Shown here: positions 1,993 to 55,985 of the stretch, piece after piece
How the letters are laid out: each line of letters starts with the position of its first letter
Position numbering within the stretch: position 1 is the first letter of the stretch
NCBI GenBank assembly: GCA_046563655.1
Contig: CM102284.1
Span: forward strand, 8,804,001 to 8,868,000
Source: Yuukianura sp. NJ FZ-2021
Taxonomy: Eukaryota
Direction of reading: 5' to 3'
Length of the DNA: 64,000 bases
The notes under the pieces: model-generated
Told to the model about the DNA's origin: nothing
Seen by the model: only the letters and a program-made list of their open reading frames with translations
The model's database searches: none
Position numbers and translations under genes: made by a program

Positions 1993-4591
1993 AAAACGAA
2001 ACAAATTCCTACGAAGTGAAATCAAAAATTTCGTTTGTTCAAAAACTGGTAAGAAATTTAAAAAAAAAGTTAATTCCAACTTTCACTGACTTTCACTTTA
2101 ATTTTACTTTTTTGTTTTGAAAATTTCAGTTCCTGGATCTAGGATGGGTCGACTTATGTTGATAACAATTTTAATTTTGAAAAAAGTTGAGTTTAAAATG
2201 CGGCACAGACGACTTTAAAAACTTCATTTAAATTTTTACGTGAAGACTGGAGCGAGATCCCCACAAATCCAAAATTTTGCCAGTTTTAATTTTGTCCTTA
2301 TTCTAAAAGTTATTAATTATTAATTAAGTTAAGTTTAGAATTAATAAAATTTCAACAAAAAATTGCGCTGTTTAGGAAAACTGAAAAATGATGGCGAGGA
2401 TGAGAGTGAAAGTGGACTTCCGGATACCGTAAAGTTTCCAATTATTATCTAACTCTGCAATTACTTTAAATTCATTCAAAATCACTTCAAATTCATTTGA
2501 ACTACTCAAAATATTACTAAACTTTCACCATATTGCTGAAATTTCGAAACCAAGTGGATTGAAATTTTTATTGGTCCACTGACGCCCATTTTACTACTCA
2601 AATCCAACAAGCTTTTGCTATCGACCGAAGTGTTTCTGTTCATTTTACTCTCTTTTGATCAAATTAATCGCCTCAAATGTACATAAATGGTGCAGATGAT
2701 TGAATTGGAAGAGAAAGTCCCCCCGAGGAATTCACATCCAGCCCCACCAAACAAAAACATGGTGGCTCCGGTGGGACTCAAGTTGGTGGCTCTCGGTGGG
2801 ACCAGAGACCCACTTTCTCCAGCACTTTCACTCTGTTGACTCTCCTTCTTCTACTGGATTTTATAAACACAACTGACAAAACACACAAAAAGATAGTGGA
2901 AAAATGAAAAAAATTCATCTTAAATTGAAAACACAATTGAAAAGTGGAACTGACTACAAAATGTAAAGTGTGTTGTACTATCAAAATTTTGAAACTTCTG
3001 AAAGCGTTTGATGGTGCTGTAAAAAGGAGAGGGACTGTGTCAATTCTTTGTAAATTTGCATTTTGAGGGAGAAAGCAGAGAGGGATTTGGTTGTTATTGT
3101 GTTTGATCCAATTTTGAATAGATTTTGTACAGAAGACTCAATCAGATCCACACTCTACTCAAAAAAGAGAGTCTTTCACAGAAATAAGAGTTGAATTGAG
3201 CGTCTATTCAATTCAAAAGTGACGGAAGTTCTGCTTTTTTTGAAAAAAAGAAAAACTTGAAACTTTCTTTTTGTGCTGGAAAAGAAAACAGGGATTTTAA
3301 AGGAAATGAAAAAGATAAGCTCAGATCCGATTTCAAATCCTTTTCAAACTCTCACATTTTAAAAAAAATCTCACTTTTCAAAATCTCAATTTTCAAAATT
3401 TTCATTAAATTTTACTAAACCTATTACATAATTCAATGATAAGGTGAAAGAATACTACACCTTATTCTCCCGTGGTTTAAAATTTTGATTTTTTTGAAAT
3501 TTCGAAATTTGATTACTTTGTTGTACCAAAATGAGTTAAGGACAGGAGAGCCCTTAAGTGAGTTTAAGTGTACGTGGGCGTGGCCAAGGGACAGACAAAG
3601 AAAAGGGGCGTGGTCAGCAGGAGAAAGTGCATTTGGACACACGGAAAAGCTTTCTCCGGGGACACGCCCCCAACTCCCACCCACAAATCATAACAACTCT
3701 AATTTCAAATTACTCAAAGTTAATTTAAAAGGAACTTTGTAATTAAGTGGTGCGTTAATTAGTAATTAGTGACTAAAGAGTGAGAGTGTATTTTGAAATG
3801 GGAGCCCTTAGGAGTGCCTTAATTGAGTGGACAATGGAGGTGAGGCAGAAGCCCTTCAAGGGCCCTCCTTCAATTTCACACACAAAGAGTGTCCACCTCC
3901 ACAAGGAAATGAACTTGGTTCAAATTAGTTTGTGAAAAAGAGAGGTGGATTGTGTCGTGATACTTGTGGGGTTGCGGGGTTCAGGGGATCAAAAGTGAGG
4001 GGGTTGCGGGGTTCGAGGGGGATCAAATTTGAGGGGTCAAGTGGGGGTAAGGTCACCCCCTTCCTTTGTCCTCCCCTTCTGCACAATTGACTTTCTCTCA
4101 AGTGAAAGTGGCGGGTGATTAAAATTTCAATTAGGAAATTGAATGGAGAGGAAAGGACTCAACTCTAAATGGCTCCCACGCCGCAAATAGGGAAAGTAAA
4201 TTAAATTTCTAAGCTCACATTTTTTAAAAAGCTTATCTAAATTTAAAATTTTAAACAACTTTTCAAAACTTACTTATTTAAGAGCTAAGATTAGAAAATT
4301 TTGTAAAAATTTAAAATCAAGTTTACAAAAACACAACACAAAAATATTTCAAGATTTTGAAGATTTATTTCTATTTGTATTTTTCAAAATATGAAATTTG
4401 TAATCAATGATTGATTCCTCGTAATTAAAGTTTTTGTAATAAAATAAAAATTTCCAGTAAAATCTTGTTCCGATTCTTCTCTTCAGAACATTTTCTTCGA
4501 TTTCTTGCAGATTTCTCAGTTTTTGTTTGGTAATTTTGATTGTTTGAGAAGGTCGTTGACCTTTGGTTGACTTTTGGATGAGTTGAGGAGG

Positions 4592-4990
4592 TTATTGTTG
4601 TTGTTGTGCATAGCTGGGGTGGACACTTTGTTGATCTGCATACTGCTGATCTGGTGGTGGTGCGTAACCTTGTTGTTGATTTTGAGCTGGCGCGTACTGA
4701 CCTCCGCCAGCGGCGGCCTTAGCAGCTTTGCGTTTTGCCAGGAACATTCCCAGGAAGACTCCGATGATGAGGAAAATGATGGCTGCGAAAATGAAGCACA
4801 AGCATCCGACGAGAGCCAATCGGCCGTTGCGTTTCGAATTGAGGCATTCTAAGTATTTATCGCGTGTGTCAAGCTTTTTTTTGCAACAATCTTGATCGTC
4901 GTTAATATGATCAGACTCCACTGCCAGTTTGCCTTTGAGCAGTTCCTTAAGCTCTTCGTCACTCACGATTCTGCAGGGTGCTCCACTCAT
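4592..4990 (-). CDS. Small membrane protein, paralog 1 of 4 (132 aa; C..CC..C N-region, ~28-aa hydrophobic segment, KRK, YAPPP/Q-rich tail)
   Basis: Clean ATG-TAA ORF, clearly similar to three neighbouring ORFs. Upstream non-coding exon with GTAAG donor at 5115 and acceptor at 5018-5019. Confidence 0.8.
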   Translation of the reverse strand: MSGAPCRIVSDEELKELLKGKLAVESDHINDDQDCCKKKLDTRDKYLECLNSKRNGRLALVGCLCFIFAAIIFLIIGVFLGMFLAKRKAAKAAAGGGQYAPAQNQQQGYAPPPDQQYADQQSVHPSYAQQQQ

Positions 4991-5588
4991 TCTTCCGGTT
5001 ACTTTTGACTTTGCAGTCTAAAAGACACAAAAATATTTTAGGTCAATGACCTTTGGAATGACCTCTGACACAACTTTTGTCACAAAAGTGTAAGAAAGTT
5101 ACATGAAATGCTTACCAATGCAACAATGTGGTCCGAAACTACTGGAATTGACGTAGATCAAGTACTTGAGTGCGGAATTTCCTGGACGAGGAACTGGATT
5201 CGTCGAATACTGCCAACCGAGGGAGAAAAACACGTCTTGCTGGGTCGACGGTCAAACGTCAAATGAACTAAAACGCTGAGGTGTTCAGAGAAAACATTTT
5301 CCAAATAGTAAACAACATAGAAACTTTAACTTTCTTTTGTTGTCATGACAACACTTTCAAATTCAAATCGAAATTGAAAAATATTTTTTAACGATTTTTT
5401 TTGTAGATGATTTTATTCTTCCAGAAATTATGAAATTTTGACGATCAATTTAGTCGTAAATCCTGAGCTCTCATACTATGTTTCGGCAGCACATTTCGGA
5501 TGCGATGGGAACCAAGCGATGTCGTTGACCTTTGGCCCACTTTTGGTTGACCTGAGAAGGTCGTTGACCTTTGGTTGACTTGGGAATG

Positions 5589-6206
5589 TTATGGTAGTTG
5601 TCCAGCACTTGGCTGGACACTGGGCTGATCTGGATACTGCTGATTCGGTGGTGGTGGTGCGTACATCGGTTGTTGATTGGGAGGTGGCGCAGTCTGACCT
5701 CCACGGCCGCCTTGATTAGCTTTCCGTTTTGCAAGGAACATGCCCAGGAAGAATCCAGCCACGAGACAGATGATTCCCATGAAGAGTGCTGCCAAGCATC
5801 CCACCAGAGCCAATTGGTTTCGTCGCTTCTTATCCAAGCAACTGTTCATGTCTTCACCCAAAGTATCAGCGTCTGCCTTACTCTTTACCTTGTTGAGTTT
5901 AGATTGAGTTATTTCAAGGTCTTTGCAGCAATAGTGCAAGTCGATCGACAAGTCCGCAGCGTGTCCGCCAACTTCCTTGGCTACTTCCTTAGCCGTCTCG
6001 TAGGTGAAACTGGGACACATTACTACTAGTAGATGACTTATACGTAGTCCTCCCAATACTCCTAGCCCTCCTCCTCCTCCTCCTCCTCCGACTGGCCATC
6101 CTCCTCCGAATTCTCGCTCTGGTCTTCCTCCTCCGAATTCTCGCTCTGGTCTTCCTCCTCCGAATTCTCGCTCTGGTCTTCCTCCTCCGTAAGCCGGGTC
6201 GTACAT
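5589..6206 (-). CDS. Small membrane protein, paralog 2 of 4 (~205 aa; N-terminal GGGRPEREF x3 repeat and poly-Gly added)
   Basis: First ATG after the acceptor at 6226-6227 is 6206 (MYDPAY...). Core HYCCKD..C..KKRR-hydrophobic-KRK-YAPPP is shared with the paralogs. 5'UTR exon donor near 6313. Confidence 0.75.
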   Translation of the reverse strand: MYDPAYGGGRPEREFGGGRPEREFGGGRPEREFGGGWPVGGGGGGGGLGVLGGLRISHLLVVMCPSFTYETAKEVAKEVGGHAADLSIDLHYCCKDLEITQSKLNKVKSKADADTLGEDMNSCLDKKRRNQLALVGCLAALFMGIICLVAGFFLGMFLAKRKANQGGRGGQTAPPPNQQPMYAPPPPNQQYPDQPSVQPSAGQLP

Positions 6207-6826
6207 TGTTCCTGTCGCTGTTGACCTTAAATAGAAACAGAAATTAAGATTTGACCTTTCAATTTTTTTTGGTAAAAGTATGGAATTCCAAACAATTTTT
6301 AGGAAATGCTTACCAATCAAACAACTTCCTCCAAAACTACTGGAATTCAGTACCTGAGTGCGGAATTTCCAGGAAATTTGAATTTGTTGAAAAAAGTATG
6401 ACACGTACTTCCTGTTGTTGATGCTGCTGCTTGCTGGATGTCGGAGGTCAAAGGTCAACTGAACGACTGAACCCAAACAAACGTTTTCAAACAAAACAAT
6501 TTCTGTCGCCTTTTACATGGAAACTTTTAAACTTTTTAAAAACAAAATAAAATCTGCGTTTACTGTTTTTAGAACAAAAAATATATAAACATTTGGAAGA
6601 TTTATTTTCATTTGTGTTTCTATTTAAGTTTGAAATTTGTAACCAATTGATTGTTCGTAGGTTTTAGTAATAAAATTAATTTCTAAGTAAAAATCTTCAT
6701 CCGCTTCTTTCTTCACAAAATTTCGTGGATTTCCCAGTTTTCTTCGCAAATTTTGATTGTTTGAGAAGGTCATTGACCTTTTGTTGACCTATGAAGGCCT
6801 TTGACCTTGGTGTTGACTTGAGCAGA

Positions 6827-7297
6827 TTATGATTGTTGTGCAGCAGTTGCTTGATTCGCGTACTGCTGATTTGGTGGTGGGGCGTACATCGGTGGCTGAT
6901 TTGGAGGTTGTGCGTACATCAGTTGCTGATTTGGAGGTTGTGCGTACATCAGTTGTTGACTTGGAGGTTGTGTGTACATCGGTTGCTGATTCGGAGGTGG
7001 TGCGTACTGTCCTCCACCTCCACCTTGATTACCTTTCCGTTTTCCAATGCATATTCCGACGAAGATTCCGATGCCAAAGCAGAGGATTCCGACGAACAAT
7101 GCTGACAAGCATCCGGTGAGAGCCAATCGGTTGTTCCGCTTCCTTTTCTCGCAAGCAAACAATTCTTTTACTGTTTTAACACCATCCTTGCAACAGTCCT
7201 GGGCGTCCCATAAGGCATCTTCGCGGCTGGTGCCCTTAGCATGAGTCTCTGCTATGAGCTCATTCACCCGTCTGTTACTCGCGCAATCTTCTCCCAT
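6827..7297 (-). CDS. Small membrane protein, paralog 3 of 4 (156 aa; tail of ~10-aa MY(A/T)(Q/P)PP(N/S)QQ repeats)
   Basis: ATG-TAA ORF; DCCKDG..CEKRKR-hydrophobic-KRK; 30-bp tandem repeats in the tail. Confidence 0.8.
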   Translation of the reverse strand: MGEDCASNRRVNELIAETHAKGTSREDALWDAQDCCKDGVKTVKELFACEKRKRNNRLALTGCLSALFVGILCFGIGIFVGICIGKRKGNQGGGGGQYAPPPNQQPMYTQPPSQQLMYAQPPNQQLMYAQPPNQPPMYAPPPNQQYANQATAAQQS

Positions 7298-7867
7298 CTT
7301 TGCAGTGTAGTCGAAAAACCTGCATCAAAAAAATGAGACTCGTTGGGGTCAATGACCTTTGGAATGACCTCTGACCTAAAAGGTACAAGAAATGCTTACC
7401 TATCAAACAATGTGGTCCGAAACTACTGGAATTGGCGTAGATCAAGTACTTGAGAGCGGAAGTTCCTGAACGAGGAACTGGATTAGTCGAATACTGCAAA
7501 GCGAGGGAGAAAAACACGTTTTGCTGTGTTAGAGGAGGTCAAAAGGTCAAATGAACCCGAACGCCAACATTTTCAGAGAAACGTTTTCCGACTCGTAAAC
7601 AACCTGGAAACTTTCTTTTGTTGCCATAACAACACATTCAAATTCAAAACGAAGTAAAAAAAATATTACGATTTTTTTTTTCTTGTAAACGATTTTATTC
7701 TTCCAGGAATCCTGAAATTTTGGCGATCAGTTTAGTCGTAAATGCTGAGCTCTCATTGACTTCGGCAGCACATTTAGGATCCGATGAGAACCAAGCGAAG
7801 TCGTTGACCTTTGGTTGACTTTTGGTTGACCTGAGAAAGTCGTTGACCTTTGGCTGACCTGAGAAAG

Positions 7868-8344
7868 TTATGATTGTTGTGCAGCACTCGGGTAGACACT
7901 GGCTGGATCCGCATACTGCTGATTTGGTGGTGGGGCGTACATCGGTGGTTGACTTGGTGGTGACCCGTACATCAGTTGTTGACTTGGTGGCGCGTACATC
8001 GGTTGTTGACTTGGTGGGGCGTACATCGGTTGTTGATTCGGAGGTGGGGCGTACTGGCCTCCACCGCCGCCTTGATTAGCCTTGCGTTTTGCAATGCACA
8101 TTCCCACGAAGATTCCGATGATGAAGAAAATGATAGCTGCGAAAAGAAAGCTCAAGCATCCGACGAGAGCAAATCGCCCGGTCCGCTTCCTTTCGGCGCA
8201 TTTTCTTGTTTCTTTTTGTGTTGTGGTGCCTTCTTGGCAACAGGCACGGGCGTCCCACAGCGAATCTTCGCCGCTGTCGCCCCCATAATTATTCATTACT
8301 ATGAGAGCCTCCACTTCCGCTTTAGTGTTGCACCTTTCTCTCAT
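7868..8344 (-). CDS. Small membrane protein, paralog 4 of 4 (~158 aa)
   Basis: First ATG (MRERC) at 8344, after an acceptor near 8367. ACCQEG..CAERKR-hydrophobic-KRK followed by MYAPP(S/N)QQ repeats. Confidence 0.8.
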   Translation of the reverse strand: MRERCNTKAEVEALIVMNNYGGDSGEDSLWDARACCQEGTTTQKETRKCAERKRTGRFALVGCLSFLFAAIIFFIIGIFVGMCIAKRKANQGGGGGQYAPPPNQQPMYAPPSQQPMYAPPSQQLMYGSPPSQPPMYAPPPNQQYADPASVYPSAAQQS

Positions 8345-8915
8345 TTTTTCAGTCCAGTCCAAAAGCCTGGAACCAAAAAAAAATGAGACTCATGGGGTCA
8401 ATGACCTTTAAAATGACCTCTGACCCAATTTCTCTCACAAAACATAAAGGCTTACCAATCGAAACAATGTGGTCCAAAACTACTGGAATTGACGAAGATC
8501 AAGTACTTGAGTGCGGAATTTTCTGGACACAAACTTGGAATACTGCGAAAAGATGCGGCAAGTACTTCCTGCTGCTGCCCCGTAGAAAGTCAAAGGTCAA
8601 AGGTTATGTTCTCCACAAAAAATTTGCAGGTTCATCACTACGAATATTTAGTTGCGACGGGTAGACTTTCTACACTAAAATTAAAAGAAATTATTATTAT
8701 TATAGTTATTTATTTATTTATTTATTTAATTGCCACTGATACCCTGTTTAAATATTTGCCAAATATAAAAATAATAAAAATTGCCACTGATAGTTTAAAT
8801 TTTTTATTCAATATTTGTAACTCTTCATTGTCTAGATAAGCATTTTAGAACCGTTAGCAGTAGTTTTTCAAAATGTTTGTAAAAGTACTGGCAGTAGGTA
8901 TTGGCAGTATTTTTG

Positions 8916-10791
8916 TCAGTCCGAGAGTGACGAGGTGATAAGCGATGAGATGATGCAGAGCATAAAAAATGAGCCAATCGCAACCAAGAAAATGATTCTG
9001 CCAAGAGAACTTCCATACCACGTGATGAGAAAGTAGAACAGCCCAACTACTCCAAGCGCCAATATTGCAGCGATTACAAATACAAGCACCGTGGAAATCC
9101 ATGTACAGCATGGTTCAGAAGTATCCTTGCAGCATCTCGGTGCTGGAACAGGTACAGGATGAATCGGCTCAGGATCGCTGCGTCCAGCAGCAGCAGCAGC
9201 GCGATTGGCCGAATCATCGTACAGCGCAGCATCAATGATTTCGTCCACAGTGGCTCTCGGAATCGGTCCAGCTCCACCCTCTCGCAGTCCAGCAGCACCA
9301 TCTCCTTCTAGATACTTCCGCAGCACATACTTCGAGTTTTCCGACAGTTCTTTGATCTGTGTTCCTTGGAGACGTAGTTGTCGTAAAGCTGAAACTTCTT
9401 CTAAGCCTTGCGACGGAGCAAAAATGGCTTCAGTGACGTTGCAATTCCGGAGATCCAGAGTTTCCAAAGTGTTTTGATGAGCACAGAGCACTTTTCGGAC
9501 TAATTCATCCAGGTTTTCCAGAACTGGCGCACAGGCGTTTTCATCCGTCCCGAGAATGACGTTCTGGAGTTCGCATCCCAGGAAGGTAAGTGCAAATTTT
9601 TTTAGTTTCAGATGTGCCAGGTCGGTCATTTGTCCTAGGCATGATGGAGTAGCAGCATTCGGAATGTCATAGAATGCCAAACTTGTCAAATGGACATGCA
9701 CCGGATTCTGGGCCAAGGTCAGCAGAACACGGTTGACCGTGGCGATTCCGAAACCGGTAAAAGTGACACTTTGAAGCTGAGTAGCCGAGAGTAAAATTTC
9801 TCTGATCATGAGTGGATGGAGATCTTGAATTTCCAAAGTGTCGATTCGGTTTCGATGGACCGACTGCCGACCGAATTTCAATTTGTGTCGGAACAGTTTC
9901 AGGACATACGATGACTCAAAAATTAGAGTTCGGAGGTTCACGAATGCTGGCAAGTTGGAGTCGCGTTTTGACGGTAAAAGTGATTCGGTATTGACGAGGC
10001 AATGAAAAATACCGGTCATCTGAAGTGCTTCTAAGGATGAGCAGAAGTGAATGATTCTTTGAAAAGAAACGAGTGATAAGATGCAGTTGTTGAGCCGAAG
10101 AGATTTGATATCGGGTCCGTTTTCGTGAAAGAATTTCCGAACCACTTCGAACCGGGTATCGACCGAAACGAAACGGTACTTCGGACAGTGGAACTCCGTG
10201 ATGAGACTGCTTTTTGAAAATTCAGCGAATTGGGCAATCAGCACTTCCGTTTTGACATGATGACTGTAAAACACACAAAATTTCAAAAATTTAAACTTTT
10301 CAAATTTTGAAATTTTTTAATTTTAAACTTTGTCATGTGACTAACCTTGCATCAGGCGGGTATGACAGCATGCTGGGATCAAAGTAGAGACGACCTCTGG
10401 TCCAAAGTGGTCCGATTGTCACTTGACCTTTGACCTTTCCGGTTTCGTGGTCACCGCAAATAGCCCGATTCCACTTTTTGGAGACCAGTCGCAGTGTGAG
10501 CAAATCAGAGAAGCCAATCAGGGGTACGATAAGAGCCAAAGCCTAAAAAACACAAAATTTCGACAATTATTTTCAAAATTTTATAATTTTTTTTTGTTAG
10601 AAATTAGTTTTGAGTCGTACCTGTCCGAGTTCTCCGTCCGAATTTGAACTGGATACGTGTCGAACGCTTTTCAATGATCTTGACGGCGCATGATGACGCT
10701 GATGGTGATGGTGATGGTGGTGACCATGACGAGATTGCGGCTGTTGTGGACGTGGACGCCGCGGGCGGTCAATTGTAGCTTCTGACAGCAT
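8916..10791 (-). CDS. F-box/LRR (RNI-like) protein with His-rich N-terminus and two C-terminal transmembrane segments; exons 10791-10621, 10542-10346, 10263-8916 (~570 aa)
   Basis: Three exons splice in frame (phase 0, phase 2). F-box-like LALIVPLIGFSDLLTLRLVSKKWNRAI; LRR-like motifs IKSLRLNNC, LEALQMTG, LRTLIF, LETLDLRNC, LRQLRLQG; terminal hydrophobic helices WISTVLVFVIAAILALGVVGLFYFLITW and IIFLVAIGSFFMLCIISSLI. Confidence 0.75.
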
Positions 10792-14753: not shown

Positions 14754-17700
14754 ATGGCCACTGCTACAACACCTCAGACTCAGCCAATTACGAGGAACCT
14801 ACTCATCAAAGATGCCAGTGGTGAGACTCAATTAAATTTTTGTGGTGCATGGGAAATGGACATGATCGGGAAGTATCCAGGTCAAATGATCATGATGTGA
14901 AATTGTAAGATAAGGGCATGAACATGAGGCATGAGGGCGGCTAAAACGTCACCCTGCTATCGGCATGACGTAAGGAAAAGGTTGGTAGGTGTAGTTGCAA
15001 ATTTGGCCGCTTATGTGTTAAGACAAAAATCGGTTAAGCTAGCTAATGCATAAGTGAAAATATAGGTACAGATGTAGCCTATGATTTATGGAGGTCAAAT
15101 GCCGTGGTCATAGTTCGGCACTTATGCGATCCCGGCACAGCGATCCCGCGATCCCCGATCTCCGATCCCACTCTTGGGAACGGGGAGCGCCGCTCCCCGA
15201 TCTTTTGAAAAAGATCGGGGATCGGATGCAAGGGAGCGCAAGGTATTTTGCGATCTTCTTGCGATCCCGATCCCCGCTCCTAATGTTAACAGCATGGGGA
15301 TCGGGGATCGGAAGCAGCGATCCTTCTCCCCCCTGCATGGATCGGGTCAGATCGCGGGGTATGCTCAAAGATCGGGGATCGCAGCGGGTAAGATCGCGGG
15401 GTAAGGCCAGAAGATCGGGGATCGCGTGTTTGGGAGCGCAGCAGAAGTGCCGAACTCTGGCCGTGGTTTTCTTTGTAAGTTTCGACATATGGTTTGAGGT
15501 ATCGCCGGCTACATTAGTCGAGCAGTTATGTTTTTATATTTTAGAATTTACTTTACAGTGAATTGATTTACGGTAGAAAATTGTTATTTTTCAGTGTACT
15601 TGTCTCCAGCTCCAGAATCATAAGCAGGATCGGCTCTGCGTTACCGGCACGAGTCGACTCGGACGTTGCCGAATCCGAATTTTCAGTGCTCGGTTTACTT
15701 GCCGTTTCCTCTAGTTTGTACTTTTCTTCGGGTTTTAAAGTTTTTTAAACATAAGTTTTAGCACACAATCAAGCCGTAACCATCGCAGACACTGGACATG
15801 TCTTGTCTGTCTGGCTGAAGTCGTCAACCGGCACCATCAGTTGACACTTTCCGAAGACTAGCGGCTTTAGATGCATTGAGTTAAACTAAATCGATAGCTT
15901 TTAGCTTAAGATTTGATTTTCTTAAACAATTAGCTCATAAGCTGAACGATTAATTGCAGGTAACACACAGCTGATTGAAGTTGTACAAACGGGACCTGGA
16001 AAGTTTGTGACGACCAGTGGACATTCCATCAACACTACGCCTGCAGCCACTCCTGGGAAAACTGCTCTCATCCGAACAGTACAAGCCACTGGAAATGCTG
16101 TTCCAGCTCCAACTAAAGCCGTTTCAGTGACCAGGGTGTGTTTTGATTCCTTATCAGCGACAACAAGTTGCGCTTAAGCGATAACTTTGTGGTCGTTCAT
16201 GTTTTTAGACGCCTTTGGGACAACAAATTTTAATAACCACATCGGCCACTGGAGCTACGACTGTTGGCCAAGTTCAACCTGGTCCTCAGATTATTAGAGC
16301 CATGACTCCCACTGGAACCATACTCAAGACCACTCCAGCGAGACAAATCATGGCAATTCCAATTCAACCAAACCCCGGCACTCCAACGACCATTCTAAAA
16401 ACAACTAACATCAAAAGCGAATTTGGTGGACCACCCACTCAGGCCACAATTATTCAACGAGCAGCTCCGGGAACTGTCGTTGGATCTCCCGTTGTCATCA
16501 ATTCAGTAAGATTTCTAAGTTTTCAGTTTTGAAATTCCAATTTTCACTGAAAAGTTTTCAGTTTCGATTATTTTTTTGATACTTTTTAGCAACAAATCAT
16601 TCAAGCAGGAAACCAAAGGCTCCTTCTGACACAGACACCGAATGGTGCTCAGTTGACTCCACTCACTTCAGCATCAATTGCCCAGTTAGGACAAAACCAA
16701 CTTGCCCAGTTCATAACAACTCCCGGTGGCGGACAAACTCCGACTTCCACCCTGTCTGTGTCCGGAATTGGACCGACTCTGAACATTTCCAAACAAAGTT
16801 TTATTTCACCCATTTTGGATCATACGGGAGCACGGAAGAGAGTGGACTTTCCATCTGATGTGTCCTATGAAAGTAAACGCAGGAAGGCAGAGAAGGGGGG
16901 CAAGGGGTTGAGACATTTTAGTATGAAAGTGTGTGAAAAAGTTAGGACAAAGGTAAGTCAAGTGGTTTCATGCAATATGGTCAAAAACAATTTGGTCAAA
17001 AAGTGAAAAGATCAAACATAAGAAAACTTAACCTATCTACAACGAAAACATAACTTACTTTTTGTAACGGTTGACATTTTCACTTTTTGATCAAATTATT
17101 TTGACCATTTTACGTCCTACGAAGTGAAGTATCCATGTCATTTCACGAATTAGAATTGACCTTTGACCTGAACTCTTTTTTTTTTGTGTTTCCAGGGGTC
17201 AACAACTTATAATGAAGTGGCGGATGAGCTTGTGAATGAATTTGCTTCTCCGGCAATGGGGCTGAGCCAGATTGAGCAACAGTTTGACCAGAAGAACATC
17301 CGACGTCGAGTTTACGATGCTCTGAATGTTCTAATGGCTATGAACATCATTTCAAAGGAGAAGAAGGAAATCAAGTGGCTAGGGTTACCCACAAATTCTA
17401 TGCAAGAGTGCACCACTCTGGAGAAGGACAGACAGAAGCGAATTGAGCGTCTCAAGGCAAAGACACAACAGCTCCATGACCTCATCATTCAGGTCAGTCC
17501 GGATCAAGAAAAAACTTCAAAAGTCAAAGTTTTTGGAAAAACTGAAAAACTGCTTTTTGATTTCAGCAAGTTGCGTTCAAGTCGTTGGTGGAACGAAACA
17601 AAGCAAAAGAGCGGGAATTCGGTCCACCGCCGGCTCACGGTTCCATTCACCTCCCTTTTCTTATTGTGAATACCAACAAACAGACGGTCATAGATTGCTC

Positions 17701-18438
17701 CATTTCATCTGACAAGTGAGTAAAATTGGTTCCATGTAATATGTTCAAAGACAATTTGGTCAATAAGTGAAAAGGTCAAAAAGTGAGACGTCAAAAATAA
17801 GTACACCTACCCTAGTTTAATGGTGGATGTTTTTTCTTTTTGATCTTTTTGCTTTTGACCAAATTGTTTTGAACTGGTTTTTAGTGGTTTAGGAACTAAG
17901 TTTTGTGATTATTGAGTGATTAACTGTTGATTTGTTTGAATTTCCCTGTAGAATGGAGTACTTGTTCAACTTTGATGGAACCTTTGAGATTCACGATGAC
18001 ATTGAAGTGTTGAAACGCATGGGTTTGGCTCTGGGACTGGACAAGAATGAGTGCACGGATGAGGACATTGCCCAAGCGAAGCGGATTCTGCCAAAGGCCT
18101 TAGAGGATTATGTGGATCAGATTGGGAAGAGGTCAGAGGACTGGAAGGCAGACTTCGGTGACCTCGACTTTGAAGAGAACTATTTCCACAGCATGGACGG
18201 AGACATTGACACTGAGAATGTGGAGAACGTGTACGAAGTGTCTGGACATTCCTTGACGAATGACTCTGTCGATGGTCTGAACTTGGCCGTGGAGGACTTG
18301 GAGATGCAGGCAGCCATTGCTGCTCTCCATGGCCAGGAGGATGGACATGTTCTGGATGAGGATGAGGAGGATCTGGGAGTGGATGGGGAGGAGGATGACT
18401 TTGGGGAGGAGGAGGATGTGGGCGCACTGTCGGAGTAA
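14754..18438 (+). CDS. Dp: Transcription factor Dp (E2F dimerisation partner); exons 14754-14820, 15960-16135, 16209-16505, 16590-16952, 17196-17492, 17567-17715, 17952-18438
   Basis: All junctions GT-AG and in frame. [61 protein letters not shown] (DEF box), [31 protein letters not shown]; acidic tail. Confidence 0.95.
15109..15459. mobile_element. hAT-type non-autonomous element (MITE) in the first coding intron of Dp
   Basis: 15-bp TIRs CATAGTTCGGCACTT / AAGTGCCGAACTCTG (14/15 match). Perfect 8-bp TSD GCCGTGGT at 15101-15108 and 15460-15467. GC-rich interior of CGATCCC/GGGATCG motifs. Confidence 0.88.
16964..17120. mobile_element. Foldback MITE family A, copy 1 (Dp intron)
   Basis: ATGGTCAAAAACAATTTGGTCAAAAAGTGAAAA is inverted at the other end as TTTTCACTTTTTGATCAAATTATTTTGACCAT. 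Similar to 17728 and 20752. Confidence 0.7.
17728..17874. mobile_element. Foldback MITE family A, copy 2 (Dp intron)
   Basis: GGTTCCATGTAATATGTTCAAAGACAATTTGGTCAA ... TTGACCAAATTGTTTTGAAC; same arms as copy 1. Confidence 0.65.
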
Positions 18439-32363: not shown

Positions 32364-35300
32364 TTAGTCATGGGCAGAGTTATTTTTAAGCAGTTTGATC
32401 TTCCTGTTGTGCACGGGACTTTCTTCGAGAATTGTGAGTTTGCGATTTTTGAGGGCGGGGCGACTTGACACAGCGGACGACGCTGATTGGTTATTGACCG
32501 AAGATGGAGATTCGTTAATAATCGGGAGTTCTGTGATACTTGACATGGCGGATTCAGTTAACTTTGACCCCGCGTGACCTTGACCTTGACCTTCAATGAA
32601 CATTGACGAAGGGGCAGAGTGACCAAGGACTTGTGACGACTTTTCTTTTAAACTTCCGGTTCTGTCACGGTCGAAACTTCCACTGCATGAAGTTGAGTAG
32701 ATGTACTCAGAACTTTCTTCAAGGGACGGAGCCCTTCGCACACTCGACTTTGACTCCAGTGGATGCGCATGCGTACCTCCAATATTTTCAAAAAAACAAA
32801 TTTTTAAATATTTTTTAACTTTATTTTCAAAAAAAAAAAGGTTTACAGATTCAGATTTTCAGATTTTCTCACCTTGGTCAAGAGAATACTGGCGACGGAG
32901 ACCGCGAGCAGCAGGTTTTCCTGTCAGCAGTTGATGAGCTACCTGTTGCCAGAGTTGTTCAAAATTTCAGTAAGGGCGAGCCAAAATTTCAAAAAAGTTC
33001 AAAATTTTGAAAAGTATTGGAATTTTTTGGTTTTTATTACTTGTTCAGCAGGAGACAGAGAGCGGAGAGTGTCGGTTCCAGTGGACCCGCCGCTGTTGCA
33101 GTGGAGTAGCCCGTACTTGTGAATTGGTTTGGCTGGAACTGGAGCAGTACTGCGCTGAATCTGAGTGGGCGTGGCTTCCGGGACGCTGTTTGATCCACTA
33201 CTTGTTCCAGTGCTTGTTGTCGGATCGGCAAATTCGTTTCCGATTTCTCCCGAGTCTGGCCAAACTCCTGTTCGGCCATACATAATAGCCTTTTCGTCCA
33301 AGTGACTAAAAATGACAATAATTTACGAATTTTGGCAAATTTTGAATATTTGTGCCAAAACTTACCAAGAATCGCTGAAAAATTTAAAAATACAAAATTT
33401 TTAGTAATTTTGATATTCAATTTTGAAAAACTTTTTGATTTTTGATTTACTTTGGACCTGGAGGCTTCGGAAGCTCTTTGTCAAAGCCTTCCTTGCCCAG
33501 AAGCCAAAACGTGGGCATTTGACCTTTGCCCTTGATAGCTGTCATACCCCTGATCAGTCAAAACATAATTTTTATGTTAATGTAAATCTTATGTAAGTTT
33601 ATGCAAGTTTCATGTAAGTTTTATGTAAGATAGGTTTACCTGTACTGGATAATGTAACCTCCGATGCTGTCGAGTTTGGCTTTGGTTTCTCCAGAAATGT
33701 GAATCCGCCAAGCTGACCCAGTGGATTCCATTCGAGATGCTGTATTGACAGTGTCTCCTAAAAACCAAATTTTGATTTAAAAATTTGAAAATGTTTCCAA
33801 AATTTTGATTTTTTCAAAAAAACAGGTTTACCGAAGAGACAGTATCGTGGCATAGTGAGCCCCACCACACCAGCACAGCATGACCCTGTATGAAGTCCAA
33901 TACGCAGACGCAGTGGGGTGAATGGCAAATGCCGAATTCGAAATTTCCCGCTTTGGTGTAACAGGTCAAGCGCCATTGTTGCAATTTGGTCAGCATGATT
34001 TTTGGACCAAACTGGAGCACCTCCCACGACCTTCAATAAATTTACCAAATTTTTCAAATTTGAAATTTTGGAAAATTTTGAATCAGGTTTTTACCATGTA
34101 GGCGTCCCCAATCGTCTCAACTTTGTAGACATTGTAGTCGTTGATAGTCGCATCGAAGCATGTGTAAAGGTCATTCAAAAGGTCAACAACTTCAAATGGC
34201 GTAGAATAAGCAGAAATCGTAGTAAATCCTTCAAAAAATGCAATTTTTTAACATTTTCCAAATTTTTTGAAATTTTTCGAATTTGACTTGTTGACATTAC
34301 CGACAATATCCGAAAAGTAAATCGTTACATCCGAGAACTCCTCTGGATCTACCGGGAGTCCCACTTTCAGTTTGTCTGCCACCATACTGTTCAAAATCCA
34401 AAACCAAAATTTCAATTTCTGTTTTCTTCTTTTTTCAAAATTTCAATTTCAGTTTGTTTCAAAATTTTGAAAAAGTCTTACCTCGGCAGCATTCGATTGA
34501 GGAGTTGCTCAGTCTTCTTTTTCTCCAAGTCCAATTGCTCTGTTCTCTCTCTAATTAATTCTTCTAAATTATTGCTGTATTTCTCCAACATTTGGAACAT
34601 TGTGTCCACTATATTGGCTTTTCTAAAATTTTAAAAATTTCAAATTCCAAAATTTCAAAATTTTGAGGCCAAAGGTCATAAATTTTAAGTTGTGCTGTGG
34701 TTATACCTCCCGTGGTTAAGCGTTTTGAACAGATCATGGATGACCATAAAGTCTGGGCGCATGTCCGGCAGTTCCGCCCAGCATTGTCGCATGATATTGA
34801 TGGCTTCCGGTGGAGCCACCCCTTTGCTCACTGACGGCCGAATCAGCGGTGGTGGATGTTTCAACTTCTCAATAATTTCTAAAATTCAAAAAAGTTCAAA
34901 TTTTGAAAAATTTTGAAAATTTTGGAAATTTTGGAGACAGTTGAACTTACCATTCGGTGTGAGTGTGATCATGCAGTAAGGCTCTCCTCTCACCAGCACT
35001 TCTTGCATAATTATTGCAAAACTGAAGACATCGCCAGCCTGCGATCCTAGTTTTCGCAAATTCTCATCACGCAAAAGTTCTGGAGCGGTCCACAGAAGAT
35101 CTAAAGACATTTTTGAAAAAAGTCCAAGTTGGATTAAGTTTTTGAAATTTTTCAGAAATTCTATGTTTTGTGTAACTTCCTTTTGGAGAAAGTGCTATTA
35201 GAAAAGTGGTTTTTAACAGTTTTCATCAACTTTGCAGTTGACCTTTGACCTGGATTGACCTACCTTTGGCTTTCCTGTGAGCAGGAGAGAGTCCTTGGGC

Positions 35301-38300
35301 AGAGTAGAATCCATTGAGTCCATAATCCGTAATTTTTAGAACCCACCGAGCATCCACTACGCAGTTATGTGAAGTGAGACATCCATGCACCTTCACAAAA
35401 CTAAGGTGCAAGTAACGCATTCCCTAAGCAAATAAACGTTTATTAGCCTCCATTACCTTTCACTTCCACCTACATAACCTTACATGATCCTACATAAAAC
35501 ATAACTTTACATAAAACATAACGTAGCTGGTTAGGCTAACTATAAAACCCTAAAGCCAATGAGGTTTAGACGATTAGGATTGTTCGACACGAGAAAAAGA
35601 GAAAGTACGGGAGAAAGTGATTTTAACTTGCGAAAAAAAAACAATCTTTACATGCACAATTTCTAATAAATGTTCCTAAATTTTCAAATTTTGTGAACCC
35701 CATTTGGAATTTCATTGAGAAAATGCAATTTTTTTTTTCAAATTTGCGTTCTCTGCTTTTACTTTCAATGGGAATGGGATTTCGAAAAAGTGAATAGACC
35801 TATTAATGTCGTAACCCAAGAAGAAAAAGTGAAAAGTCTGATTTTAAGTGGTAACTTTCAACTTTCACTTTCCTTTTTCCAAATGTTCAAAGTTTGAAAT
35901 GTGATTTGAGGAAAAATTTTAAATGAAAAAAAGACGTCATCTACAGACATAACAGAAAGTTTGAAATTCTAAATTGAGACGCTTGATTGCCTCTCTGACC
36001 TCATTTTTTGGTGATATGAAGGTGAAAATATAAAAAATGTTAGGTTTTTTTTTTCGAAAGCGTAATTTTGACTTCTTTTTTTTCAAAAATGTAATCTTGA
36101 TTTCAATTTGATGGAGCGGGACAATAGTTGCAGGAAATGAAATAAAAGGAAATTGGATTTAGAAGAAAATGAGAGAATGGAGGAGAAAGTGACCAAAATT
36201 TCGAACTCTAGTGACCAAAAAACGACTTTTTTGATTTTTTTTTTCAAAAATTGAAAAACTTACTCGAACTAAATCGGTGAGTAGAGAGAGCTTAAAGGCC
36301 CAATCCAATTTGATATCATTTTGTTGCAAAATTTCATACAGAGATCCACGAGAGCAGTATTCCCACACAAGTGCTGGGCGTGGTTCAGTCAAGCAGCCTA
36401 ACATTGCCGCCACATTTTCATGTCGGAGTCCATTCAACTGAAATTCAAAATTTCAAAAATCTTTTCCAAAAACTAAAAAATTTTGGTTTTCTTACGTTTT
36501 CCAAAACACTCATTCCCTTCATCTTAATTTGAAGAGACTCCGTTCCTCCTCCTCCGAGTTTTCTCAAGTGTACTAAATCCCCCTGTGTTCAAAAAAATTC
36601 AAACTTGATTAAAATTGTTCCAGAATTGAGCTTTTTGTGCAAAAATTTTTGCATAACGAAATTATGCTCCACCTCCTCGTTTGCTAATTTGAACGAGAAA
36701 CGGAGCTTGTTCTGTGAAGCGTGTGACACGCTTTCCCTCTTTTTAAATTATTCTCTTCACTTTTTGTTCTTTTTTAAAGAGTTTTTTTTTAAAAAGAGAA
36801 AGTTAACAATACCCTAGAGAACAAGCAAATTGGAAACACTGCTGTCGTTTTTTGAAAAAGTGGAGGAGGGTGTTTTAAATTTTGAAAAGCCAGCATCAAG
36901 TGGAAGTCAATTCGGAAAAAAACAGAAAGTAGAACAAGCAGCGCCATTCTTAAAGCTTCCGGCGTCTCTTCAGTGTTGAATGCAAATGATTATTTCAATT
37001 CCCACGCTAAATTTCAGAAATTTTACTTTACACACAAAAAAAAAACGAAGATTAATTCAAAAATTGGAGTTTTAATTTCTGCTTTCTTGGACTTTCTAAC
37101 TCAATTTTGTAAACGTGACGAACAAAGTTTCAATTCTTTTTAAACGTTTCAATTCTAGCTTTGTTTTGTGAATTTCTTAGCAGAATTTAAAGAAGTTTGT
37201 ACAAAAGACGCTTAATTTGATTTCAATTAAAAAGAAAATTCGATTTTTTTTTCATTTCAACTGAATGATTCAATTTAAACTTTCTCTTTGTCTATTTTGC
37301 CTTTTTTGTCTTCTTTTGTGTCGTTTTTATGTATTTCGTCTTCTTCTATGTCGTTTTGTGTAATTTTTAGATTTCATGAAAGCTTGAACACTGTCAAATG
37401 AGTTGCTACGACAAAATGGCGACGATTTGACTTTCACGGCGTAAATTTGTTTGAAAAATGTCGCGTTTTGGCGCTTGTGATTTCAAATTTTTGCCGTGAC
37501 TCCGATGCGTCTTGCTCTGCACAGCAATATTCAGTTCCTGTAGAAATTTTAAGTAACCAACTGCATGTCACAAGACACAAATTCTGTGAAAAACCGAAAC
37601 GACTAAAAAAAATCGTGTCACCGAGAGGTAATGACATTTTATTATACTAGGTCAACCTCAAAAATTTGAAATTCTTCAACTTCAAAAATTTGACATTCTG
37701 AAATTTTGAATTTCAGAACCCCGAGAAAGTGAAATGTCCTTGGCACAACCAGAGACGTATATTCCGAAATGCAATAAATCGTGGAATCGCATTCCAAATC
37801 CATGGACTCTCAAGACGTTAGCACTCAAAAGCATTCTACGCAGCCTCAGTTGCGTCAAACATCCGCTAAGACACGCAAAAGGGGCGGAGTTTCGAGAATA
37901 CTTGGCAGAAAATTTACTTCCGGAATTTTTTGACGATTTGATTCGCGTTGCTCACTTCAATATGCTCAAACCAGAGAGTATGGTCAACGTCCTCCATGCA
38001 GTTCCACCTAGAGTCTATGCAACCTGTGTCGATCTACTTGGATTCTACGAGTAACTTTCAAAAAATTCGAAATTTTCAAAATTTTCAAATTTTCAAAATT
38101 TTGATTTTTGGAATCCTAGGGGCACGGAGTGCTGCAAACCTGACAGCAGTTTGAACTGGATCTTTGGATTTTTGCCTGACATTTGCTTGGGGACTTCAGC
38201 GATGACCAAATTGGTGAACCTTCTGCTAAAACTTGACCTCTCAAAAATTCAAACCATCCGCCTCTGGGCTAAAGACCGAGCTATCAAGGACTCTTACTTT

Positions 38301-53560: not shown

Positions 53561-55985
53561 ATAAAATTAACTATTCGTTGTCAAGGAACCTTGATTCCAG
53601 GTGCTTCGAGTTAGGCTGAGTTTCAGAAAGTTAGGCTAGTTAGGTTATGTTTGAGCTTAGGTTAGGCTAACTTTCACGTCAGGTTGGAGAAAGTAAAGCA
53701 AAAAAGACAAAGGAAGTTGTTAACAAGGAAGACGGTGAGCGATGGTAGTCAAATATTTGCAGTTTGATGGACTAGACTCTCAGAGGGCCAGTAAAGACAA
53801 AAGTGAAACCTCTATTTACTCAAAGAGACACACGGGTTGAAATCAAATGAGCAACTGACTCCACGGTGACCTTTGACCTCTGCTCAATTAACTCTAACTG
53901 AAGGTGATGATGCTATGCAAAGCAGGATTTTAATTAAAACGAGTTTCATAATAGCAATTTCATTTTGGTGGAAATTTTGTACTAAAAACTGACTCAACTT
54001 TTTATTGCTCAACTGATGAGCTGAAGGTGATTTGGAAATTTCAGGAGAAAAGTGACTTAATTAAAAGTTATGAACAACACCCACTTCTCATGTTGTTAAT
54101 AAAACTCCAAATTTTTATAAAAACTGCAATTTTGAAGTTTTTTTTTTGAAAATCGCTTGCTTTATCAAAAAACTAAAGTCTATTTGTAATTTTGGCCAAT
54201 AATAAGTTATGAAAGAGGAAGTTTTAATTCTTGTTTTCCAACTAAAAATGTTGTAGTTTTTGGAATTGTAGGTGCGTGCATACGTCTATAATCCTGGTTT
54301 AGAACAATAGCTGCACAAATGCTTACGTCTATAATAGTAGTTTTTAGTCTTTTAGTTACTTTTAGTAACTAGTGAAAGCTTAATAATTGGGGTTGATGTG
54401 CCTCGAGGGGAAAGTGAGCAACTTTCTCAGCTGAAAATTAATTATTCAATCCCTCTCATCCTCTCCGTCAAACTCAAATTATTACACAACCTTCAATTCT
54501 CAAAAAACTCTATAGTCTCAGTTTCAAAATTTTATGAAATTTTGGCTTTCTGAAAATAATACAACTAATGCAACAACAGTCAGTCGGCTTCAGTGAACTT
54601 TTTTTTCTCATAAATTCTTACGGGATTTCCTGCACAAAATTTAGAGAGTGGCGTAAAAAAAATTACCTTGGATTCTTTTTTTCACAGCGATGGAGATGAT
54701 TTTCGGCGTTGATGCTTCACAAAAATTTTAAACTCAAAATGAAATTGTAACTTTTGGAGTTTTTTTTTTTTGAAAAAGAAGAACTGTTGAACCGAATTTT
54801 CTGAAACTCGTCGTTGAAACACTGAGCCTTGCTGTTCTCTTCCAGCTCAAAACTGACACTGAGCAGTTCCTTTGCTTTCTCCTCGAATTTTCTCTGCCTA
54901 ACCAGAACCAGTTCCAATTTTTACTATTGAACAGAGTAGAAAGCTTTCTCTTCTAAAGTCTGCTTATATGGCCAGAAATGTACACCGTGATCCGAAATTT
55001 GGATCCGAACAGAAAAATTATTGCATTTTGCCCAAAAAATTGCTTCACATTCTTGAAAGTTGCGTATATCTCCTTAGAAGTTTCACATTTTTTGCCAAAT
55101 TTCTACTTAATAAAAATCTCTTGAATTAAGAAGAAGTCAAAATTCAAAAATTTAGACTTGGATTTTTTAAGTTTGCTTACAAACTAAATTTTTTTTGTTA
55201 AAAGTTAGACCAACTAACACTTCAAGAGCAGAAAATATGAACTTTTGGACCATGGTGTACTTTAGTTATTCCACAGAGGTTCCACCGCCTTCTTCCAAGG
55301 TTAGCAAAGTCCGAGGATTAGGTGGACCATGGCTCCCATACAAAACGAGCAGCCTTTTGAACACCATAATGAAACTTTCCCTTTGCTTTATGGAAAAATA
55401 AGCTTCCATTTTCCTTCTCCAAGAAAAGTCACTGCTCTCACCGACTTTTTCAATTTCAAATCCTCCCTCCTTTCACTAAATACTTTCCGCAAGAGGATGG
55501 TTCATTTTTAGTTAAAAAGAGAAAGAACTCCAAGGACTTAGACTCCAAATCCTATTGATTTCTTTTATAAACACACTTTGACGCCTTCCCATTCTCCAAA
55601 CTTACTATAATAAGGAATGAAAAGCAAAAGAAAGCAAGAGACTCAAAAAAAAGAAAAAATCGGAATTAATTGTGTTAAGAAATGGAACAAAAGTTTTGAA
55701 AACTGAGAGAAAGTGATTACGTCCTCGCTGTTATTAAAAAAATAGAAAGTTTCGTTGTTCTCGTTTACACAAAACTTTGAATCTGTTCAATCGTAACTCC
55801 AAATGCGCAGTGCAAGTGAAAGTAACAAAAAACTTTCTTTCGTTTTTTAGAAAAATACAGAAGTGAAAAAGTGAAAGTCCAAGTTTCACTCGCATGCAGC
55901 TTTTCAAGTTCTTCAGGTTGAGAAAAGTTTGTTTATTTTTTTCCAGGAGCTTGAGGATGGCATTTCTAATGCTTTTCCAGTTTTT

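Follow-up and report, generated by a model that had tools for sequence, protein, structure and literature searches.

A tandem array of four small predicted membrane proteins with a variable cysteine-containing N-region in the springtail Yuukianura

Introduction

What kind of protein is encoded by a run of four small neighbouring genes that share a membrane segment and a repetitive tail, and what might such proteins do? The question is raised by positions 4592-8344 of a 64,000-nucleotide (nt) stretch of the genome of Yuukianura sp. NJ FZ-2021 (assembly GCA_046563655.1, contig CM102284.1, positions 8,804,001 to 8,868,000), referred to below as the window. An initial annotation of this DNA had described the array as unrecognised small membrane proteins and had suggested a family of receptors or adaptors, possibly immune or moulting related. 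The four genes, g1 to g4, constitute a previously undescribed family that is new to the libraries searched. By its architecture, our best-supported guess, to which we give a probability of roughly 0.4, is that this is a lineage-restricted family acting like the single-pass adaptors of the Shisa/CYYR1/Comm type, with a variable, Cys-braced N-terminal domain outside the cytosol and a docking tail inside; the likeness to known adaptor proteins is one of layout only.

Results

Four paralogous genes in tandem

An open reading frame (ORF) listing of region 4000-9000, made with the standard code, gives four paralogous frames on the minus strand, which together span 4592-8344:

4592..4990, minus strand: g1 coding exon, 132 residues (ORF, alignment and tblastn paralogy)
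5589..6206, minus strand: g2 coding exon, 205 residues counted from the first ATG after the acceptor
6827..7297, minus strand: g3 coding exon, 156 residues (ORF, alignment and tblastn)
7868..8344, minus strand: g4 coding exon, 158 residues (ORF, alignment and tblastn)
6092..6189, minus strand: tandem repeat in the g2 N-terminal extension, 27 nt x 3.6, encoding GGGRPEREF three times

Within the 64-kb window the four match one another in tblastn at E values from 1e-24 to 4e-63, in agreement with the earlier description of four same-strand paralogs. The same search found no fifth copy in the window; all else lies at E of at least 0.018, the weak matches being low-complexity DNA. In the full-length alignment (A1) identity to g1 is 46-51%, and g3 and g4 are 64% identical by tblastn. 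The part of g2 that is homologous to the family starts at the Met codon at 6018-6020 and has 144 residues (5589-6023). Ahead of it, in g2 alone and in frame with the first post-acceptor ATG, lie 61 Gly-rich residues, among them three GGGRPEREF units and then a run of eight Gly; g2 probably starts 61 codons before the family-homologous Met.

Upstream of each ATG there is a conserved block, common to the four copies, that ends in an invariant splice donor, G/GTAAGC (alignment A2). An 18-mer of this block, AATTCCAGTAGTTTYGGA, occurs four times in the window, solely at g1-g4, against 0.26 expected. With the acceptor taken as the nearest AG with a pyrimidine tract, the predicted introns are 98, 88, 80 and 89 nt long in g1-g4, all GT..AG, and the predicted second exon begins 19-27 nt before the ATG. 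No ATG occurs over at least 190 nt of the predicted spliced leaders, in which in-frame stops are found 72, 45, 48 and 159 nt 5' of the start codons of g1, g2, g3 and g4, respectively; under the predicted splice, therefore, no hidden upstream signal peptide could be encoded. Each copy has one AATAAA, 169-223 nt past its stop. All of these features are on the minus strand, and those of g1, like the others, are predictions from sequence:

5018..5115, minus strand: predicted g1 intron, 98 nt, GT..AG
5116..5215, minus strand: predicted non-coding exon 1 of g1, conserved block with the invariant 18-mer and no ATG, 5' end not fixed
4364..4369, minus strand: AATAAA of g1, 223 nt past the stop
6226..6313, minus strand: predicted g2 intron, 88 nt
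6314..6400, minus strand: predicted non-coding exon 1 of g2, with a 10-nt deletion relative to the other copies, 5' end not fixed
5412..5417, minus strand: AATAAA of g2, 172 nt past the stop
7320..7399, minus strand: predicted g3 intron, 80 nt
7400..7500, minus strand: predicted non-coding exon 1 of g3, conserved block, 5' end not fixed
6601..6606, minus strand: AATAAA of g3, 221 nt past the stop
8367..8455, minus strand: predicted g4 intron, 89 nt
8456..8555, minus strand: predicted non-coding exon 1 of g4, conserved block, 5' end not fixed
7694..7699, minus strand: AATAAA of g4, 169 nt past the stop

The donor, the acceptor, the ATG-free leader and its in-frame stops thus lend good sequence support to the layout first proposed for each gene, namely a non-coding first exon followed by a single coding exon.

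The four open paralogous frames, the dN/dS values of the tail and membrane segment (see below) and the conserved donor, acceptor and AATAAA all argue that g1-g4 are probably real, separately transcribed paralogous genes, a view that forms part of the adaptor reading. That they are instead decaying or unexpressed duplicates, with frames held open by recent exchange between copies, would fit the lack of a homologue outside the array in the searches made and the dN/dS of about 1 in the N-region of g3-g4, but is hardly credible given that all four frames are open despite a proportion of synonymous differences (pS) of 0.25-0.90, that the g3-g4 tail has a dN/dS of 0.17, that five Cys, the GxxxG motif and the basic flanks are all invariant, and that splice and poly(A) signals are retained in all four copies.

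Each protein combines a variable N-region, a fixed membrane segment and a repetitive tail

Alignment A1 contains 38 columns that are invariant across g1-g4. The length of the N-region is about 57 residues, and in g2 it may reach 131; the copies agree with one another at 10-22 of 47-52 aligned residues. Within the first 52 residues just seven are invariant, namely C6, D27, D31, C35, C36, T42 and C49, and four of these are Cys, which bears out the claim that the Cys are conserved in an otherwise diverged N-region. Their spacing is C-x28/29-CC-x12-C in g1, g3 and g4. In g2, owing to a 16-residue insertion, the interval from CC to the fourth Cys is x28; the C..CC-x12/13-C pattern first noted therefore holds for three of the four copies. 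The fourth Cys always stands 8 residues ahead of the hydrophobic segment.

Each of the four copies has a hydrophobic run of exactly 28 residues, none of them charged. A fifth invariant Cys (C63) stands towards the start of the run and a likewise invariant G-x-F-x-G (G77/G81) towards its end, the latter forming a GxxxG motif, which is a packing motif of the glycophorin type. There are 4-7 Lys or Arg in the 15 residues before the segment and an invariant KRK after it. As the initial annotation had it, the hydrophobic stretch of about 28 residues and its KR/KRK flanks are conserved and there is no N-terminal signal peptide: in the first 40 residues of the four proteins the highest 9-residue Kyte-Doolittle mean is 0.28-1.69, with no N-terminal hydrophobic stretch.

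The tail that follows is 46-73 residues long, of which 55-70% are Gln, Pro, Tyr, Ala or Gly; acidic residues are almost absent, and none of the four tails contains a Cys or an N-x-S/T sequon. Its conserved skeleton is GGQ-x-AP..NQQ..Y-x-PPP-x-QQY, and it is built of 9-10-residue units whose constant feature is Y-A-P-P (YxxP). YxxP is the motif class of Abl/Src substrates and of Crk/Nck SH2 sites. As had been claimed, the repeat number of this Tyr-Pro-Gln tail varies, with 1, 1, 5 and 6 YxxP in g1-g4 and 1, 1, 2 and 4 YAPP. The canonical [LP]PxY motif occurs 0, 0, 1 and 1 times, in the form PPMY in g3 and g4, and LPxY in no copy. A tandem repeat search of the DNA found tail arrays in g3 and g4, and none in g1 or g2:

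6864..7007, minus strand: g3 tail tandem repeat, 30 nt x 4.8, encoding PPxQQ[LP]MYA
7920..8054, minus strand: g4 tail tandem repeat, 27 nt x 4.7, encoding the tail repeats

AlphaFold2 (AF2) models of full-length g1 (mean predicted local distance difference test, pLDDT, 57.8) and of g4 residues 1-95 (66.2), both of low confidence and built on four-sequence alignments, are concordant. They place helices at about residues 8-20, 25-37 and 43-92/95, followed by a disordered tail, with a pLDDT of 71-89 in the membrane helix; the third helix starts near residue 43 and spans the hydrophobic segment without a break. A homodimer prediction for residues 1-95 scored 0.03. Two candidate motifs were discarded. 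An RxxR before the membrane segment (RNGR in g1, RNNR in g3 and RTGR in g4, not in g2) is unlikely to be a convertase site so near the bilayer and is not conserved, and the ALG-2 ABM-1 motif (PPYP..YP, after the definition given in the part of PMC5037681 cited here) is absent.

The N-region diverges while the copies exchange the rest

Ratios of nonsynonymous to synonymous change (dN/dS) were estimated by the Nei-Gojobori method on the codon alignment, with 36-66 codons per part, so that the ratios are indicative only. For the pair g3-g4:

N-region: 52 codons, dN/dS 1.04, pS 0.38
basic flanks and membrane segment: 36 codons, dN/dS 0.58, pS 0.37
tail: 66 codons, dN/dS 0.17, pS 0.34

Between copies the ratio ranges over 0.17-0.57 in the tail and 0.26-0.66 in the membrane segment. 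As far as such ratios indicate, in the youngest pair, g3-g4, the N-region, its Cys excepted, changes about neutrally, and the tail is constrained. In the older pairs the N-region has reached saturation at its synonymous sites (pS 0.63-0.90), against a pS of 0.25-0.58 in the membrane segment and tail, and the contrast between N-region and anchor there is probably in part a mosaic of ages. The idea of a fast-evolving N-terminal domain on a conserved anchor thus stands for g3-g4 (1.04 against 0.58) and is weakened for the older pairs.

Different segments have different nearest copies, an indication of exchange within the array. By nucleotide identity the nearest pair is g1-g3 for exon 1 (91%), g2-g4 for the 3' flank (89% and 78%), g1-g4 for the membrane segment (87%) and g3-g4 for the tail (87%), and the identity of the N-region, at most 63%, is below that of the non-coding exon 1 (72-91%) in every pair. 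The pattern points to gene conversion or unequal crossing-over that would homogenise everything except the N-region, and the flanks fit a duplicated two-gene unit (g1,g2 / g3,g4). The array would then have grown by tandem duplication, and later exchange between copies would keep exon 1, membrane segment, tail and flanks alike as the N-region drifts about neutrally apart from its Cys.

Searches for relatives

Pfam was searched at E values up to 10 with the full proteins and with the N-region plus membrane segment alone, and gave only sub-threshold matches to the membrane segment. Word-indexed protein searches were likewise blank: with g4, none of 1191 candidates scored at E up to 0.01, and with A1, none of 2900 at E up to 10. 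An exhaustive profile search of 1.84 billion representatives returned one match (P0001, E 3.3e-4), a 146-residue singleton aligned over 49 columns that cover the basic flank, the membrane segment and a Gly run. No Cys column was matched and P0001 has no informative Pfam or PDB match, and we read it as a look-alike of the membrane segment. A supposed resemblance of its C-terminal part to a type II peptidase was not confirmed. Peptide patterns run against metagenome contigs gave 285 matches with none confirmed, and an exon-1 DNA pattern gave none; in a profile search of the PDB no match had an E value below 0.1, and all lay over the membrane segment or tail; NCBIfam gave no match near cut-off; a gathering-threshold scan of the whole window with Rfam found no families; and a literature search on YAPPP transmembrane proteins found nothing relevant. 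The judgement that the family is unrecognised has accordingly held up, with no full-length match in Pfam, PDB, NCBIfam or the protein and metagenome collections searched. It should be noted that the window's own DP protein (see below) is missing from the searched protein collection, so these blanks say little on close relatives of the host species.

A language-model feature search (Atlas) with whole g4 listed CYYR1 (0.86), a nematode cluster (0.84), a WBP1-like protein (0.82) and Shisa-5 (0.80), and g3 residues 1-92, without the tail, listed nematode clusters (0.82-0.83), CYYR1 (0.81), Shisa_N (0.76) and DUF2650 (0.76). Scores below 0.9 are leads only, with shuffled proteins reaching 0.8 a third of the time, and the shared features, 121-155, are below 170. 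Among the matches listed, the named neighbours all belong to one architectural group. This is the Shisa-like group STMC6, reportedly founded in a 2012 paper by Pei and Grishin; it also takes in Shisa1-9 and presumably DUF2650.

Resemblance to known single-pass adaptors

STMC6 proteins are described, in the sections of the papers cited here, as single-transmembrane proteins with six conserved Cys for which a role as adaptors of other membrane proteins has been postulated (PMC5037681), with the Cys pattern C..C..CC..CC (PMC5578492). Within this group, in which it is counted with WBP1, VOPP1, WBP1L and TMEM92, CYYR1 combines a signal peptide and a Cys-rich domain with a membrane helix and three PPxY motifs, by which it binds WWP1/WWP2 at late endosomes (PMC11399591); it also has a Cys inside the membrane helix (PMC5578492). 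Compared with what those sections describe, the springtail proteins are similar in being small, with a short N-domain whose Cys include an adjacent CC, a Cys in the membrane helix (C63) and a disordered Pro/Tyr-rich C-tail, and they are predicted to have a single helix after the Cys region (a 28-residue run in all four copies, modelled as one helix). They differ in having no signal peptide and four N-region Cys (C..CC..C) in place of six; their tails are Pro-rich, but against the PPxY/LPxY tails of STMC6 they hold [LP]PxY in only two copies. The polybasic flanks on both sides of the membrane segment are a further difference from STMC6. Since the signal-peptide, six-Cys and profile features fail, we do not file the family as a Shisa-like/STMC6 member.

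Comm, PRRG4 and the yeast Rcr1-Rcr2 proteins are likewise short single-pass proteins, as g1-g4 are predicted to be, and their cytosolic tails carry motifs of the Pro-x-Tyr type. In the part of PMC5578492 cited here, Comm and two PRRG proteins are described as having no signal sequences, as is the case in g1-g4, and Rcr1 as binding Rsp5 through a non-canonical VPEY motif, to which QPMY and HPSY of the present family may be compared; unlike that of g1-g4, the outer domain of Comm is described there as having no Cys. The extended GLPSYDEAL or GLPSY-like motif of Comm/PRRG4 is not found in g1-g4. The Pfam RCR family (PF12273) matched g4 alone and there just the membrane segment, with E 0.22 and a score of 12.7 bits where the cut-off is 27.8.

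In carrying multiple Tyr motifs on a disordered, membrane-attached scaffold, the family also resembles the p130Cas substrate domain and the LAT/PAG adaptors in layout; a sequence relationship is not expected. LAT/PAG have few outer residues and a CxxC past the helix, unlike g1-g4, which have no Cys there. As for LITAF/SIMPLE, the CxxC knuckles that flank its hydrophobic segment are absent here.

Orientation in the membrane and possible modes of action

How would such proteins work? In the adaptor reading, the N-region would be placed outside by type III single-pass insertion without a signal peptide, for which Comm and two PRRG proteins are a reported precedent, and its four Cys would form two disulfides. 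This is suggested by the invariance of the four Cys, with their adjacent pair, in a helical region that is otherwise free to change; we infer, too, that an adjacent CC pair would be awkward for one metal ion and so favours disulfides. The tail would be cytosolic, as a Cys-free, sequon-free, disordered Pro/Tyr/Gln sequence directly past a KRK cluster like a stop-transfer signal. The variable N-domain and the membrane helix would then engage a partner membrane protein, the invariant GxxxG permitting the helix to pack with itself or with the partner. The tail, presenting 1-6 YxxP/xPxY units to modular domains, would dock cytosolic WW, SH3 or, with Tyr phosphorylated, SH2-type modules, and these would set the trafficking or turnover of the partner. 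Net charge, at least as high in the C-flank as in the N-flank of g1 and g2, favours N-outside in those two copies, and the length of the hydrophobic segment was counted on the same side.

Several observations weigh against this proposal. The N-flanks of g1-g4 hold 5, 4, 6 and 7 Lys or Arg against 4, 4, 3 and 3 in the C-flanks, and in g3 and g4 the net charge speaks for an N-terminus inside. Under the positive-inside and charge-difference rules, which link basic flank charge to membrane orientation, the excess on the N-side would imply the opposite orientation or a hairpin. Up to 131 residues of g2 would have to be translocated without a signal peptide. Canonical [LP]PxY is confined to one site each in g3 and g4, and NPxY, YxxPhi, P[ST]AP and ALG-2-type PPYP motifs are found in none of the four proteins. 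The full proteins and the N-region plus membrane segment have no match to PF13908, PF10873, PF11669 or PF10853 at E up to 10, and the AF2 models are of the low confidence stated above. A receptor or adaptor, as first suggested, hence stays plausible by architecture, and is made less secure by the canonical motif being present in two of four copies and by the ambiguous orientation.

An unlikely alternative, yet one to be reckoned with, is the type II orientation, in which the N-region would lie on the cytosolic side of the membrane with its Cys, including C63, S-acylated or metal-binding, and the tail would be extracellular; the Gln/Pro/Tyr tail could, for example, form a cross-linkable or adhesive stalk towards matrix or cuticle. 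The same flank counts (N-flank/C-flank 5/4, 4/4, 6/3 and 7/3, equal in g2) and the net charge of g3 and g4 speak for it, as do the lack of a signal peptide and the long N-extension of g2, which would be easier to leave in the cytosol. Membrane-proximal Cys are typical acylation sites, and Gln and Tyr, in which the tail is rich, are the residues of transglutaminase and dityrosine cross-links. However, the KRK directly past the hydrophobic segment would need to cross the membrane, Cys held at a fixed spacing where dN/dS is otherwise about 1 would rather suggest a disulfide scaffold, sequons are absent from the tail and Ser/Thr scarce in it, and the comparable Tyr/Pro/Gln repeat tails of synaptophysin, cephalopod rhodopsin and annexin A7/A11 are cytosolic.

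Common descent with STMC6, i.e. a very divergent true member related to CYYR1, WBP1, Shisa or DUF2650 that has lost the signal peptide and two Cys, is nested within the functional adaptor reading, and we consider it rather improbable. Every named Atlas neighbour among the matches listed falls in STMC6, even when the tail is left off the query, and the layout of CC pair, one membrane helix and Pro/Tyr tail is common to both, as is the Cys inside the membrane helix that the cited part of PMC5578492 describes for CYYR1. Opposed to this are Atlas scores (0.76-0.86) and shared-feature counts that fall short of 0.9 and 170, the blank searches with the four Pfam families, the C..CC..C pattern and the missing signal peptide.

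Less probable again is a monotopic hairpin, in which the segment would dip into one leaflet and the flanks, Cys region and tail would all be cytosolic, as in a surface scaffold of the LITAF/caveolin kind. Strong basic clusters on both sides in all four copies would suit it, as would the small residues at segment positions 12-13 (AA, MG, VG and AA) and the three invariant Gly. Against it, the AF2 models of g1 and g4 give one continuous helix (pLDDT 71-89), there is no central Pro, 28 residues are short for a hairpin, and the LITAF knuckles are absent.

Nuclear-receptor-type motifs around the genes

Half-sites of the AGGTCA type number 29 in the 4.3 kb around the genes (6.7/kb) against 1.2/kb elsewhere in the window, and inverted repeats with a one-base spacer (IR-1, GGTCANTGACC) lie in or beside g1-g4 in four of the window's five cases, against 0.04 expected in the whole window; the array sites are not independent, as the copies are duplicates, and AGGTCA-type motifs are over-represented across the whole window too. 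The half-sites of the 3' flanks are made up by an 11-nt microsatellite, GTTGACCTTTG.

5040..5052: IR-1 AGGTCAATGACCT, perfect (AGGTCA-n-TGACCT), in the predicted g1 intron
6767..6779: IR-1 AGGTCATTGACCT, perfect (AGGTCA-n-TGACCT), in the g3 3' flank or untranslated region (UTR)
7346..7358: IR-1 GGGTCAATGACCT, near-perfect, in the predicted g3 intron
8395..8407: IR-1 GGGTCAATGACCT, near-perfect, in the predicted g4 intron
6447..6457, minus strand: direct repeat with a one-base spacer (DR1) type, TGACCTTTGAC, upstream of g2 exon 1, exact
5251-5261 (g1, one mismatch), 8589-8599 (g4, exact) and 7537-7550 (g3, spacer longer by one base): DR1-type sites of the other copies

According to the part of PMC1885670 cited here, IR-1 is a better binding site than the natural hsp27 element both for the DNA-binding domains of EcR/USP and for the receptors at full length. 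The motifs hint at nuclear-receptor control of g1-g4. For the suggested link to immunity or moulting there is no direct support: nothing in the proteins speaks for it, the IR-1 motifs are the sole hint, and AGGTCA types are found window-wide.

The perfect DR1 13-mer TGACCTTTGACCT occurs at 6445-6457 in the array and, in unrelated contexts, at 10424-10436, 17157-17169, 35239-35251 and 53867-53879, and the 11-mer with up to one mismatch occurs 22 times in the window against 2.04 expected. It looks like a general, genome-wide cis-element of the HNF4/RXR-USP/COUP type that would not be specific to the array. Twelve GGTCA lie within 200 nt at 38653-38856, inside a 539-residue ORF on the plus strand (38055-39674) that resembles leucine-rich repeat (LRR) proteins; they stem from a coding repeat, GGG TCA ACN for Gly-Ser-Thr, of 'GSTxxQxL' units. 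A perfect IR-1, AGGTCATTGACCT, stands at 38902-38914, and this LRR-like region calls for caution with half-site counts.

It is very improbable, though it can be formulated, that the array represents a new springtail-specific class of phosphotyrosine/proline scaffold, with a disulfide-braced, diversifying sensor outside, a (YxxP)n docking tail inside that is tunable by repeat number, and expression driven by the moulting-hormone receptor through perfect IR-1 elements of the first intron. Were it true, the array would make up a module for signalling or sorting that is private to the lineage and coupled to the moult cycle.

Other features of the array and its neighbourhood

A block GGAAATTCCGCACTCAAGTAC, on the minus strand at 5150-5185, 6345-6372, 7435-7470 and 8490-8525 and presumed to be exon 1 or core promoter, is better conserved than the N-terminal coding sequence, and may represent either a binding site of the ETS, Rel or STAT-like kind or an element of the 5' UTR. 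Within the exon-1 block, GGAAATTCC is intact in g1 and g2 and has one base changed in g3 and g4; as a kappaB, STAT or ETS site it was set aside, being intact in two of four copies only. The 3' flanks of g1 (4555-4581) and g4 (7803-7868), and similarly those of g2 and g3, contain the 11-nt microsatellite GTTGACCTTTG in 2.5-2.7 copies, together with a 28-nt repeat in two copies. These repeats, which read CAAAGGTCAAC on the mRNA strand, lie directly past the stop codons, inside the presumed 3' UTRs.

The neighbouring genes, namely an LRR/transmembrane protein, an F-box/SPRY-like protein, DP, a short-chain dehydrogenase exon, a LAMP-like protein and a PHD-finger protein, provide no functional context. 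The LRR protein adjoins the array (8916-10316, minus strand; weak Pfam LRR_4 match, E 0.0015), and near its C-terminus it has CCKD...CC directly before two hydrophobic segments; it was considered as a relative of g1-g4 and rejected, there being no similarity (E 26). At 16590-18438 on the plus strand are exons of the transcription factor DP, the dimerisation partner of E2F. For the DP exon at 17196-17492, identity is 94% to the proteins of two springtails, Orchesella cincta and Allacma fusca, and 96% to one further protein; most of the other matches listed are insects, at up to 79%. These identities place the window in a springtail-like hexapod.

Discussion

As far as can be judged from sequence, g1-g4 make up a tandem family that is lineage-restricted and of an ordinary kind. 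Annotation pipelines may miss such genes, since they are small, lie in a repeat-rich stretch and have no relatives in the searched collections. If the adaptor reading is true, the family would be a sorting adaptor of the Shisa/CYYR1/Comm type in a basal hexapod, either built independently or diverged beyond recognition, and the four copies would offer a natural series of N-domains and of tail valencies, from 1 to 6 YxxP. Such a series could be used to ask how small adaptors choose their partners and how tail valency tunes their output.

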